DNA from: Escherichia coli
GTDB taxonomy: Bacteria > Pseudomonadota > Gammaproteobacteria > Enterobacterales > Enterobacteriaceae
NCBI RefSeq assembly: GCF_044647545.1
Contig: NZ_CP172818.1
DNA: 64,000 bases
Reading direction: 5' to 3' (one strand)
Shown: positions 51,363 to 63,757 of the stretch, in pieces
How the letters are laid out: each line of letters opens with the position of its first letter
Position numbering within the stretch: position 1 is the first letter of the stretch
The notes under the pieces: model-generated
Told to the model about the DNA's origin: nothing
Seen by the model: the letters and a program-made list of their open reading frames with translations, nothing else
Databases searched by the model: none
Program-made: the position numbers and the translations under genes

Positions 51363-51601
51363 AACGAAAAGCCCCTTACTTGTAGGAGGTCTGACCACTT
51401 GTGATGATATGGTTGTAGTGGATGTAAAAACATTTAGCAATGTGTTTACAATATAATTACAACGAAGCTCACATTGTTGCTGTTTTTATCCGCACTTCAG
51501 GTCAAAAAGTCCTGGTCATAGCATCTGCCCGTACTTCTCGCTTTTGGCGGTATCCGGTACACTGCATTTTGTCTATTACATTTATGCTGAAGGATATCCT
51601 C

Positions 51602-53770: not shown

Positions 53771-53924
53771 ACTGCTTATTCCTTGATAAAACGGTTACAC
53801 ACGCCAGGACGGCAAAATGGATCCCAAATCGGAATAGTCTGGATTTGGAAGGCTCACATTATCACCAAAAGAGTTTTACGCAAGCCTGTCGGCGCAGGGT
53901 TTACAAATTTCATCGGCAGCGGGC

Positions 53925-54203
53925 TTTACCCAAATAGCGCCGCGTGAGTTCCAGTTCTCTCAAATCGTAAAAGTTTATCGGTAAGTTTGTAAATCAGGAT
54001 CCAGTCCGGTTCGACATGAGCATCGCGATAACCTTTCCATGAACCTTGCAGCGGGTGGTCTTTATAAACAGCTGGAAGCAGTAAAGTATTATTGATAAGA
54101 GCGTCATAAGATATTTCAATTTATTCATATCCTTATGACGCTTTTGTGCAAGTTTTACATCCTTTGAAAATTGTCCCGAGTATTCAATATCCCTTTGAAT
54201 CAT
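53925..54203 (-). pseudogene. yafQ: YafQ mRNA-interferase toxin, frameshifted
   Basis: First 36 codons from ATG at 54203 match YafQ; frame breaks near 54094-54096; the +1 frame continues with ...YKDHPLQGSWKGYRDAHVEPDWILIYKL...FERTGTHAALFG to 53925. Confidence 0.8.
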
Positions 54204-54205
54204 AT

Positions 54206-54466
54206 TTAAATTCCTAATTTATCAAATAAATCATCGGCGTCTTTGGCCTTATGAATACCAACGCCAGCTTCGCTGTTTTTGATTGATTGAATAGTTAATT
54301 GATTAGGCTCGCGTAAATCAAACGGCAATGCCTTTTCACGCGCGACCTTTGTGAGGGTTATGCGAACCAGGTCAGAGATGGTCAGCCCCATCCCGGCCAG
54401 TACGTCCGCCGCCTGATTCTTCAGATCTTCATCGATTCGGGCGCGAACAAACGCGTTAGCAGCCAT
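54206..54466 (-). CDS. dinJ: DinJ antitoxin
   Basis: 86-aa ORF MAANAFVRARIDEDLKNQAADVLAGMGLTISD; immediately upstream of yafQ. Confidence 0.92.
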   Translation of the reverse strand: MAANAFVRARIDEDLKNQAADVLAGMGLTISDLVRITLTKVAREKALPFDLREPNQLTIQSIKNSEAGVGIHKAKDADDLFDKLGI

Positions 54467-54482
54467 TGGGATATCTCCTGTG

Positions 54483-54498
54483 CTGTATATTTATTCAG
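54483..54498 (-). promoter_or_regulatory. LexA-like box in dinJ promoter region
   Basis: CTGTATATTTATTCAG, close to CTGT-N8-ACAG. Confidence 0.5.
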
Positions 54499-54675
54499 CT
54501 TGAATTGTAGCTCAAATGAGCAACAGCGACAATCCATGAGTAATTTAATAAACGGATGTTTTTACATAATTAACTGAAATATATTTATTAATTTTATAAT
54601 AATGGTTTATTAAGTTTGTTCAGGTACGGGCCGGGATACACTGCAACATCAATGCATGACCAGCCATTATTGAGA

Positions 54676-55425
54676 ATGTCTTTGCCGTCGATTCCCTCTT
54701 TTGTGTTGTCGGGATTACTGTTGCTTTGCTTGCCGTTTTCTTCATTTGCCAGCGCCACCACATCACATATCTCTTTCAGCTACGCCGCCCGCCAGCGGAT
54801 GCAAAACCGTGCGCGTTTATTAAAACAGTACCAAACCCATCTGAAAAAACAGGCCAGCTATATTGTGGAAGGCAATGCCGAAAGCAGAAGGGCGCTACGC
54901 CAGCACAACCGGGAGCAGATAAAACAGCATCCAGAATGGTTTCCTGCGCCGCTCAAGGCGAGTGACAGACGCTGGCAGGCGCTGGCGGAAAACAACCACT
55001 TTTTAAGCAGCGATCACCTGCATAACATCACCGAAGTGGCGATTCACCGCCTGGAGCAGCAGCTTGGCAAGCCTTATGTCTGGGGCGGCACGCGGCCCGA
55101 TAAAGGCTTCGACTGTAGCGGGTTGGTTTTTTATGCCTACAACAAGATCCTTGAGGCGAAGCTCCCGCGCACAGCCAATGAGATGTATCACTACCATCGG
55201 GCAACGATTGTGGCGAACAACGACCTGCGCCGGGGAGATTTGCTGTTTTTCCATATTCACAGCCGCGAGATAGCCGATCATATGGGGGTGTATCTGGGAG
55301 ACGGTCAGTTTATCGAGTCACCACGTACCGGCGAAACCATTCGGATAAGCCGGTTAGCTGAACCTTTCTGGCAGGATCATTTTTTAGGCGCGCGGCGGAT
55401 TTTGACGGAAGAGACGATTTTGTAG
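54676..55425 (+). CDS. yafL: NlpC/P60-family putative peptidoglycan endopeptidase
   Basis: 249 aa from MSLPSIPSFVLSG; signal peptide; conserved Cys (DCSGLV) and His. Confidence 0.85.
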   Translation: MSLPSIPSFVLSGLLLLCLPFSSFASATTSHISFSYAARQRMQNRARLLKQYQTHLKKQASYIVEGNAESRRALRQHNREQIKQHPEWFPAPLKASDRRWQALAENNHFLSSDHLHNITEVAIHRLEQQLGKPYVWGGTRPDKGFDCSGLVFYAYNKILEAKLPRTANEMYHYHRATIVANNDLRRGDLLFFHIHSREIADHMGVYLGDGQFIESPRTGETIRISRLAEPFWQDHFLGARRILTEETIL

Positions 55426-57182
55426 GCAGGGATCTCCCCCACAACACTCAACGCCCCCATAATCTTCAACTCCAGCTCGTCCGGCACTTCGTTATACGAC
55501 AGCACATGCAGCCCCGGCGCAAACAATCTCGCATAGCGCGCCAGCAAAGGGCGCAACTGCGGTGGCACCAGCAGCACAGGGTCTTTCCCCGCCGCTTTCA
55601 TCTGCTCCTTCACCTGCGGCATCGTACTCTGGAACTGGTTGAGCATATTCGGGTCTACCGGCACGCTGTCGAGCATCACTTTGCCGGCCTGTTGCGCCTG
55701 ATTCACCACGTTGGTCAGCAGATTTTCCAGCTCATTATTCAGCGTATACACCGTCAGCTCCTGCTTGCGAACGAACGGATGGGTAATGCTGCGCCGCAGC
55801 GCCAGGCGCACATCTGCCGCCAGCAGAATATGATCTTTGGTCACCGCACTACTGGCGACCAGCACGGTGGCGATGGTGACGATATCGCGCAGGGAAACGC
55901 CTTCAGTCAGCAGCGCCCGGTACACTTTCAGCAACTGGCTGTAATTCAGCGCCGCGCTCAAATCCTCCGCCAGTCGCGGTGCCATCGACGACAGGCGGTT
56001 ATGCAACTGCGTAATATCGTCATAGTTAAATAAATCAGGAATATAGCTGCGCACAATCTTATTCACATGCGTGGCAATTACGCTGGCGCTGTCGATCACC
56101 TGATACCCCATATTCAGCGCCTTCGCTTTCTGCGCAGGCTGAATCCAGGTGACCGGCATCCCATATGCCGGGTCATTCCCCAGTACGCCGTCAATCTCGC
56201 CGTAGGTTTCGCTGGAGGGCAGGGCCATCAGTTTATCCGCCGGAATATCCGCTTCATCAGCCTTAATGCCGTTGATGAAAATGGCGTACTGGCTGGGCTT
56301 GAGACGGAAGTTTTCCCGAATACGGATCTCCGGCAGCAGCACGCCGTTACCGTCGGATATCACCTGCCGCACGCCGCGAATCCGCTGGGTGAGCGGGTTC
56401 CCCTGCGCTTTGTCCACCAGCGCCACCAGCTTGTAGCCGAGGCTTAAGCTGATGGGCTCGATCAGCGGAATGGTTTCCCAACTGACCTGTTGCTCGCTGG
56501 TTTCGGTGATGGTTCGGGTCAGCGTTTCGAGGCTTTTCTCCTCCGCCTCCGCCGCCTGCGGGCGTTTGCTCATCCGCCAGCCGGTAAAGCCAAGCAGGGC
56601 GCTGAACAGCAAAAATGGCAGATGCGGCATCCCCGGCACCACCGCCAGCACAAACATGATCCCGGTGGCGGTGTAGAGCACCGACGGACTTGCCAGCAGC
56701 TGGTGGCGCACGTCATGGGCGATATCGCCGTTGTCGCTGACGCGGGTGACGATAATTGCCGCCGCGGTGGAGAGCAGCAGGGACGGGATCTGCGCCACCA
56801 GCCCGTCGCCGATAGTCATCAGCACATATTGCTGGAAGGCGGCGTCGGCGCTCAGGTTGTATTTGAAGATCCCGATACAGACGCCGCCGATCAGGTTGAT
56901 CGCCAGAATCATCATCCCGGCGATGGCATCGCCGCGCACAAACTTCGATGCCCCGTCCATTGCGCCGTAGAAATCGGCCTCGCTGGCAACATCTTTACGC
57001 CGGGTTTGTGCCTGCGCCTGGTTGATCAATCCGGCGTTAAGATCGGCGTCAATCGCCATCTGTTTACCGGGCATCGCGTCCAGGGTAAAGCGGGCAGAAA
57101 CCTCGGAAATACGCTCGGCCCCTTTGGTGACGACGATAAAGTTGATTGTCAACAGCGTCAGTAAATCCGAGCGTGAAAGCAT
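55377..57182 (-). pseudogene. lfhA: FlhA-like flagellar export protein remnant (Flag-2 cluster), 5'-truncated
   Basis: About 600-aa ORF with FlhA-family similarity (…FVRGDAIAG…, C-terminal cytoplasmic domain) lacking the N-terminal TM region and a credible start. Confidence 0.8.
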
Positions 57183-57948: not shown

Positions 57949-57968
57949 CACTGTATACTTTACCAGTG
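57949..57968 (+). promoter_or_regulatory. LexA operator (SOS box) of dinB
   Basis: CACTGTATACTTTACCAGTG about 15 nt upstream of the dinB start. Confidence 0.8.
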
Positions 57969-57982
57969 TTGAGAGGTGAGCA

Positions 57983-59038
57983 ATGCGTAAAATCATTCAT
58001 GTGGATATGGACTGCTTTTTCGCAGCGGTGGAGATGCGCGACAATCCCGCCCTGCGCGATATCCCTATTGCTATTGGCGGCAGCCGCGAACGTCGGGGGG
58101 TGATCAGCACCGCCAATTATCCCGCGCGTAAATTTGGCGTACGCAGCGCTATGCCGACAGGGATGGCGCTCAAATTATGCCCACATCTCACGCTGCTTCC
58201 AGGGCGCTTTGACGCCTACAAAGAAGCCTCAAATCATATCCGCGAAATTTTCTCGCGCTATACCTCGCGCATTGAACCGTTATCACTGGATGAAGCCTAT
58301 CTCGACGTCACCGATAGTGTGCATTGCCACGGTTCTGCGACCCTCATCGCCCAGGAAATCCGTCAGACGATCTTTAACGAGCTGCAACTGACGGCATCTG
58401 CGGGCGTTGCGCCGGTAAAGTTTCTCGCCAAAATTGCTTCCGACATGAATAAACCCAACGGTCAGTTTGTGATTACGCCGGCAGAAGTTCCGGCATTTCT
58501 GCAAACCTTACCGCTGGCAAAAATTCCCGGCGTCGGCAAAGTCTCGGCGGCAAAACTGGAAGCGATGGGGCTGCGGACCTGCGGTGATGTGCAAAAGTGT
58601 GATCTGGTGACTCTGCTCAAACGTTTTGGCAAATTTGGCCGCATTTTGTGGGAGCGTAGTCAGGGGATTGACGAGCGCGACGTTAACAGCGAGCGGTTGC
58701 GAAAATCCGTCGGCGTGGAACGCACGATGGCGGAAGATATTCATCACTGGTCTGAATGTGAAGCGATTATCGAGCTGCTGTATCCTGAACTTGAACGCCG
58801 TCTGGCAAAGGTAAAACCTGATTTACTGATTGCTCGCCAGGGGGTGAAATTAAAGTTCGACGATTTTCAGCAAACTACTCAGGAGCACGTCTGGCCGCGG
58901 CTGAATAAAGCTGATCTGATCGCCACCGCGCGTAAAACCTGGGATGAACGTCGCGGCGGGCGCGGTGTGCGACTGGTGGGGCTGCATGTGACGTTGCTTG
59001 ACCCTCAAATGGAAAGACAACTGGTGCTGGGATTATGA
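57983..59038 (+). CDS. dinB: DNA polymerase IV (Y-family translesion polymerase)
   Basis: 351-aa [25 protein letters not shown]. Confidence 0.95.
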
Positions 59039-63298: not shown

Positions 63299-63757
63299 AT
63301 GAGCGAAAAATACATCGTCACCTGGGACATGTTGCAGATCCATGCACGTAAACTCGCAAGCCGACTGATGCCTTCTGAACAATGGAAAGGCATTATTGCC
63401 GTAAGCCGTGGCGGTCTGGTACCGGGTGCGTTACTGGCGCGTGAACTGGGTATTCGTCATGTCGATACCGTTTGTATTTCCAGCTACGATCACGACAACC
63501 AGCGCGAGCTTAAAGTGCTGAAACGCGCAGAAGGCGATGGCGAAGGCTTCATCGTTATTGATGACCTGGTAGATACCGGTGGTACTGCGGTTGCGATTCG
63601 TGAAATGTATCCAAAAGCGCACTTTGTCACCATCTTCGCAAAACCGGCTGGTCGTCCGCTGGTTGATGACTATGTTGTTGATATCCCGCAAGATACCTGG
63701 ATTGAACAGCCGTGGGATATGGGCGTCGTATTCGTCCCGCCAATCTCCGGTCGCTAA
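63299..63757 (+). CDS. gpt: xanthine-guanine phosphoribosyltransferase
   Basis: 152-aa [27 protein letters not shown] motif [11 protein letters not shown]. Confidence 0.95.

Follow-up and report, generated by a model that had tools for sequence, protein, structure and literature searches.

The known SOS box of dinJ and a probable DinJ operator are unaltered in an Escherichia coli strain with a frameshifted yafQ toxin gene

The LexA-like box located upstream of dinJ in the 64,000-nucleotide stretch of Escherichia coli DNA analysed here (hereafter, the window) is the already known SOS box of this gene, unaltered in a strain with a broken yafQ; as a regulatory element, it is real but ordinary. 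The name dinJ stands for ‘damage-inducible J’, the gene having been named for its textbook SOS box. We consider it highly probable (about 0.9) that the region is the sigma-70 promoter/operator of the dinJ-yafQ operon, encoded on the minus strand and containing two separate repressor sites, with both controls left intact. A LexA dimer bound to CTGAATAAATATACAG would block either the binding of RNA polymerase or promoter escape, and RecA-stimulated self-cleavage of LexA following DNA damage would lift this block. The DinJ ribbon-helix-helix dimer would autoregulate the operon from another palindrome, GTTGCTCA-TT-TGAGCTAC, positioned in the promoter spacer and over the -10 element, and the frameshift in the toxin gene would leave both the LexA and the DinJ controls intact. 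Sequence identity, matrix score, position relative to the promoter and the transcription start site, and the pattern of conservation were all computed in the present analysis.

The LexA box

On the plus strand, CTGTATATTTATTCAG is present at positions 54483-54498 and, in agreement with the original prediction, shows a single mismatch to the CTGT-N8-ACAG consensus (TCAG for ACAG). Read on the minus strand, which is the dinJ strand, the same 16-mer is CTGAATAAATATACAG, the published SOS box of dinJ. Its structure is CTG-AATAAATATA-CAG (54498-54483; 20-mer context, 54481-54500), in which 10 nt lie between CTG and CAG, as in gammaproteobacterial LexA boxes. It differs at two positions from the full palindrome CTGTATATATATACAG and is the sole match with three or fewer mismatches to this palindrome in the entire 64 kb, where 0.12 such matches are expected. 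The shorter pattern, CTGT-N8-ACAG with at most one mismatch, has 22 matches in the window, compared with 17.8 +/- 4.3 in shuffled sequences; given the lack of excess over the shuffles, the one-mismatch pattern was dropped as a criterion, and the full palindrome and a scoring matrix were used instead.

The matrix was derived from 14 LexA boxes, those of recA, lexA (two boxes), uvrA/ssb, uvrB, dinG, yebG, ruvAB, recN (three boxes), umuDC, sulA and dinI, with the boxes of dinJ and dinB excluded. For each of these classical boxes, an exact match immediately ahead of the gene concerned was confirmed in the K-12 sequence. Every 20-mer of the window, on either strand, was scored using the Berg-von Hippel heterology index (HI). 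This scoring, which the original prediction had called for, ranked the dinJ 20-mer at the top of the window, with an HI of 6.6 for the gene-oriented matrix and 7.6 for the symmetrised one, so that the dinJ box, with its AT-rich spacer, scores within the range of 1.4-11.4 that the training sites themselves gave in leave-one-out scoring. Sites scoring this well are expected 0.02-0.03 times per shuffled window. The second-best score (HI 8.9-10.8) belongs to the known LexA box of dinB, CACTGTATACTTTACCAGTG (57949-57968, 15 nt upstream of dinB), which serves as an internal positive control for the matrix; dinB itself occupies positions 57983-59038 on the plus strand and encodes a protein of 351 aa. 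Two weaker LexA-like matches, at 63466-63485 and 51416-51435 (HI about 10-11), each lack one CTG/CAG trinucleotide and are probably due to chance.

It is very improbable that the dinJ box, too, arose by chance within AT-rich intergenic sequence and is devoid of any regulatory role. The AT-rich surroundings and the ordinary frequency of one-mismatch CTGT-N8-ACAG sites are in line with such an interpretation, but they have to be set against the top matrix score in the 64 kb, the position of the box exactly on the mapped start site described below and the LexA binding reported in the literature.

Anatomy of the dinJ promoter

The only experimentally mapped (RACE) transcription start site of dinJ is K-12 position 246533 (reverse strand), as listed in the supplements of PMC7567609. 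In the gap-free alignment of K-12 with the window, this nucleotide corresponds to position 54497, the T of CTG and the second base of the box, which gives a 5' untranslated region of 31 nt. A promoter scan places the -10 hexamer TACAAT at 54504-54509, 7 nt upstream of the start site equivalent, and the -35 hexamer TTGTCG at 54527-54532, with a 17-nt spacer between the two hexamers, all on the minus strand; the Shine-Dalgarno sequence of dinJ, AGGAG, is apparent on the same strand at 54475-54479. The LexA 16-mer starts 5 nt past the -10 element and spans positions -1 to +15 of the transcript, and hence bound LexA should block RNA polymerase. Such a location, overlapping the promoter or the start site, is usual for functional LexA operators (PMC2814082), and the LexA boxes of other toxin-antitoxin operons similarly overlap the -10 element or the start site (PMC2814082, PMC9040746). 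Unlike those LexA-controlled operons, the dinJ promoter has a second repressor, the antitoxin, acting directly upstream of the box, and the toxin is dead in the lineage analysed here.

In K-12, the Reg-Seq approach detected one repressor site at the dinJ promoter, at +5 to +14, which was left without an assigned repressor (PMC7567609, supplement files 5 and 13). The equivalent of this footprint (K-12 246520-246529) in the window is 54484-54493, on the minus strand, so that, by our own mapping of the coordinates, as distinct from any claim of the Reg-Seq authors, the site would fall within the LexA box. According to these authors, the known LexA and DinJ-YafQ sites fall outside the mutagenised interval, and the +5 to +14 site was not assigned to LexA (PMC7567609).

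The dinJ-yafQ promoter/operator of K-12 has the same neighbours (dpaA/yafK, yafL, lfhA and dinB) and controls a gene for DinJ with the same DNA-binding domain. The 65 nt from the -35 hexamer through the Shine-Dalgarno sequence are identical in K-12 and in the window, and 2632 of the 3253 matching records show 100% identity to this 65-mer. Differences from K-12 are one T/C change in the stretch separating the Shine-Dalgarno sequence from the ATG and two further changes within the AT-rich tract discussed below. The LexA-like box predicted upstream of dinJ is thus the canonical dinJ SOS box, matching K-12 base for base and lying on the transcription start, and it is also unchanged in O55:H7, O157:H7 and Escherichia sp. 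MOD1-EC7003. Conservation within E. coli was considered, and rejected, as a sign of selection acting on the box: the absence of differences over 65 nt is insignificant because the overall divergence between K-12 and the window is only about 2.5%.

A second operator shared by dinJ homologues

The palindrome GTTGCTCA-TT-TGAGCTAC, running from 54524 to 54507 on the minus strand, fills the spacer of the dinJ promoter, overlaps the -10 hexamer by 3 nt and is the probable operator of DinJ. In PMC6529426, the site of DinJ or DinJ-YafQ is described as a palindrome that in part overlaps the promoter elements, and the sequence found here, which overlaps the promoter and is conserved among homologues, fits this description. 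It was the comparison of homologous promoters that revealed the palindrome; an inverted-repeat finder applied to 54440-54640 returned AT-rich pairs only and missed this short operator.

For this comparison, species-representative genomes were surveyed with a degenerate nucleotide pattern encoding the N-terminus of DinJ, yielding at least 120 loci. Among the matches listed, GCTACA/TGTAGC is present within 100 nt upstream of the gene in 109 of the 116 dinJ-type promoters, which come from very diverse phyla. The LexA box shows the opposite distribution: of the 111 promoters with enough upstream sequence among the matches listed, a single one, that of Escherichia sp. MOD1-EC7003, contains a box with an HI below 12, and this is the identical 20-mer; the next-best promoter among these matches has an HI of 14.8, and the median of 22.6 is no different from that of control windows (23.9).

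The promoters of the DinJ/RelB family in Photorhabdus, Xenorhabdus, Yersinia, Pectobacterium and an Enterobacter cloacae plasmid have the same layout as the one in the window, with TTGATT followed by GTAGCTCA-NN-TGAGCTAC that overlaps a TACANT -10 element, but no LexA box is found between the -10 element and the Shine-Dalgarno sequence (best HI at least 14.8), where the window has one. Among the matches listed, this architecture is located about 20-60 nt upstream of the dinJ homologues. Nor was a LexA box found in five plasmid homologues (44%-79% protein identity), with the best HI anywhere in the locus exceeding 16; a palindrome with GCTACA-type half-sites is present at or beside the -10 element in four of these five, the Providencia plasmid being the exception. 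The family-wide conservation of the palindrome, combined with the occurrence of the LexA box in 1 of the 111 listed promoters, indicates that the two operators are distinct and that the palindrome is probably the operator of the antitoxin. Judging from the listed matches, the LexA box appears to be an Escherichia-specific addition, inserted between the -10 element and the ribosome-binding site.

These distributions also bear on the possibility that the 16-mer is, or also is, a DinJ site, rather than exclusively a LexA site, in which case DinJ would recognise LexA-box-like palindromes, such as the one in the cspE promoter. This idea follows from a review table that assigns both CTGAATAAATATACAG at dinJ-yafQ and TACTG(TA)5CAGTA at cspE to DinJ (PMC11610964), with Prysak 2009 cited for the dinJ-yafQ entry, and it would accommodate the Reg-Seq repressor at +5 to +14, which has no assigned identity. 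Other reviews, however, put DinJ on the promoter-overlapping palindrome and present LexA as a separate, external regulator. Furthermore, the palindrome conserved in the homologues of DinJ is GTAGCTCA-NN-TGAGCTAC at the -10 element and not the LexA-like box, and DinJ proteins with near-identical N-terminal domains in Photorhabdus, Xenorhabdus, Yersinia and the E. cloacae plasmid are encoded behind promoters without such a box. The abstract of the study cited for the table entry reportedly has LexA, not DinJ, binding the palindrome. Overall, we regard recognition of the 16-mer by DinJ as unlikely, and assign this site to LexA and the palindrome over the -10 element to DinJ.

Evidence for LexA and DinJ control

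The binding of LexA and DinJ is taken from the literature, as is the statement that DinJ represses as well as the DinJ-YafQ complex. LexA is described as binding the dinJ promoter in reviews that draw on Ruangprasert 2014 and Prysak 2009 (PMC4996492, PMC8138530, PMC10135005, PMC6529426), and among the same reviews are those stating that DinJ alone and DinJ-YafQ repress equally. RegulonDB, as quoted in PMC4576408 and PMC7567609, lists dinJ-yafQ as LexA-regulated.

Even in K-12, the sources disagree on whether this binding translates into SOS induction of dinJ in the cell. According to PMC4996492, which refers to Fernandez de Henestrosa 2000 and Armalyte 2012, induction of dinJ by DNA damage ‘has not been seen’; dinJ-yafQ is counted among the SOS-induced mRNA interferases in PMC2814082, with Prysak 2009 as the source. 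In Salmonella, a gene annotated as dinJ carries a LexA box with an HI of 8.27, at 14 bp from the ATG, and is upregulated 7.8-fold with nalidixic acid (PMC8072944).

The dispute leaves room for a different interpretation of the locus, in which the box binds LexA in vitro and is near-silent in vivo, DinJ at the adjacent operator keeping the promoter shut after LexA cleavage, and dinJ-yafQ does not in practice operate as part of the SOS regulon, be it in the window strain or in K-12. We take this as a serious possibility, albeit one with odds below even. The geometry of the promoter is compatible with it: the two operators are 8 nt apart and the DinJ operator lies over the -10 element, so that occupancy by DinJ alone should block the promoter. 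The reported lack of induction upon DNA damage (PMC4996492) and the absence of a LexA box from 110 of the 111 family promoters scored among the matches listed point in the same direction. By contrast, the inclusion of dinJ-yafQ among the SOS-induced interferases in PMC2814082 and the response to nalidixic acid of the Salmonella gene, which has a comparable box, argue for a box that functions in the cell, as does the Reg-Seq repressor footprint within the box, which was obtained in unstressed cells and implies that these bases matter for expression.

The antitoxin gene and the yafQ pseudogene

The dinJ-yafQ pair is a type II toxin-antitoxin operon of the RelB/RelE superfamily. The antitoxin/autorepressor gene dinJ (54206-54466, minus strand) comes first in the operon and is an intact open reading frame of 86 codons, the product of which matches Pfam RelB with E = 5e-34. 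Compared with K-12, 83 of the 86 residues match: the three substitutions are confined to residues 69-71, so that residues 1-68, and with them the DNA-binding domain, are the same in both proteins.

The toxin gene that follows, yafQ (53926-54203, minus strand), is a pseudogene. The frameshift noted in the original prediction was confirmed as a 1-nt deletion near 54100, which converts GCTTCTT of the intact K-12 gene into GCTCTT (coding strand) and leaves the first 36 codons in frame. Strains with the identical sequence, for example SMS-3-5, have yafQ annotated as ‘frameshifted’ in RefSeq. The Pfam YafQ_toxin profile matches residues 5-37 only, with a score of 24.7 bits, under the curated cut-off of 30, and a functional toxin is not recognised. 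The frameshift allele is present in 157 of 5426 complete E. coli genomes, in all cases on the chromosome, and an allele that is intact at the same position is present in 3138; the frameshift is a lineage-specific pseudogenisation. Independent decay of the module is seen elsewhere: a derivative of O157:H7 86-24 has a different yafQ frameshift, and in strain EC96, ISKox3 is inserted inside the LexA box and dinJ is lost.

The original prediction had asked whether autoregulation or SOS responsiveness of the operon survives the frameshift in the toxin gene. Because both operators and the DNA-binding domain of DinJ are intact and repression is reportedly independent of YafQ, autoregulation and LexA binding are expected to persist in the yafQ-frameshift strain, an extension to this strain of what the literature describes for K-12.

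Genomic neighbourhood and the AT-rich tract

The gene order around the promoter is dpaA(yafK)-yafQ-dinJ-yafL-lfhA-dinB. Many complete E. coli genomes, including those of SMS-3-5, ‘ST648’, MS6198 and ECONIH1, match a 701-nt query comprising yafQ, dinJ and the promoter at 100% identity, and the 3.5 kb on the right-hand side of the promoter are 99.9% identical to those strains except SMS-3-5. Following the names of the matching strains, the lineage of the window can be provisionally labelled ‘ST648-like’. The window lacks rayT, the gene for a REP-associated tyrosine transposase, which K-12 and SMS-3-5 have between yafL and lfhA. A truncated lateral-flagellar lfhA open reading frame of 601 aa (55377-57182, minus strand) shares about 49 bp with the 3' end of yafL (55425), and dinB closely follows lfhA, resembling the Flag-2 deletion scar of K-12.

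The dinJ-yafQ module is part of a presence/absence cassette, found in 3337 of 5426 complete E. coli genomes and absent from about 38%. The boundaries, 53911-54747, were obtained by a BLAST comparison of the window with the cassette-less strain E. coli MLI106K3, in which homology to the window stops at 53910 and resumes at 54748, within yafL, with 232 unrelated bp (512-743 of the MLI106K3 locus sequence) in place of 837 bp. Besides the two genes of the module and their promoter, the 837-bp cassette takes in the AT-rich tract and roughly 24 codons at the start of yafL. The swap thus covers the start of yafL, so that this gene has two alternative 5' ends in E. coli. A scan of 53900-54750 against Rfam produced no family match, the one hit, to a miRNA, being meaningless (E = 0.87), and thus gave no sign of an RNA element.

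The very AT-rich stretch that had been described as following the LexA box is real, with a G+C content of 7.5%-20% in 40-nt windows across 54540-54619, but it does not adjoin the box: the -10/-35 region, at 54504-54532 and with about 40% G+C, intervenes. The tract lies upstream of the dinJ -35 hexamer, between the dinJ promoter and yafL, in the 209-bp intergenic region from which the two genes diverge, the annotated ATG of yafL being at 54676. On the plus strand, the tract contains a candidate yafL -10 element, a perfect TATAAT at 54595-54600, 76 nt upstream of the yafL ATG, and the promoter scan identified an overlapping promoter-like site on the same strand, at 54574-54603. From these sequence features, we infer that the AT-rich tract likely carries the yafL promoter.

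Concluding remarks

The toxin of the module is dead, and dinJ, its operator and the LexA box are all intact, which raises the prospect that DinJ has been kept in the ST648-like lineage as an orphan, SOS-responsive transcription factor, with the Escherichia-only box representing a recent rewiring of the module into the SOS network. The action of DinJ on cspE and RpoS, reported for K-12, offers examples of the targets that such an orphan regulator might have. We consider this scenario rather improbable; the data fit equally well a neutral frameshift of recent origin, in a module undergoing decay in several lineages.

As a known SOS box that has remained unchanged, the element identified here carries little weight beyond annotation. 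The comparison of dinJ-type promoters portrays the LexA box and the DinJ operator as separate elements whose evolutionary histories differ. Lineages that are naturally yafQ-null and have kept dinJ and the operators intact, represented by 157 complete genomes, could be used to address the toxin-independence of DinJ and LexA control, and the same lineages could bear on the old dispute over the SOS inducibility of dinJ.
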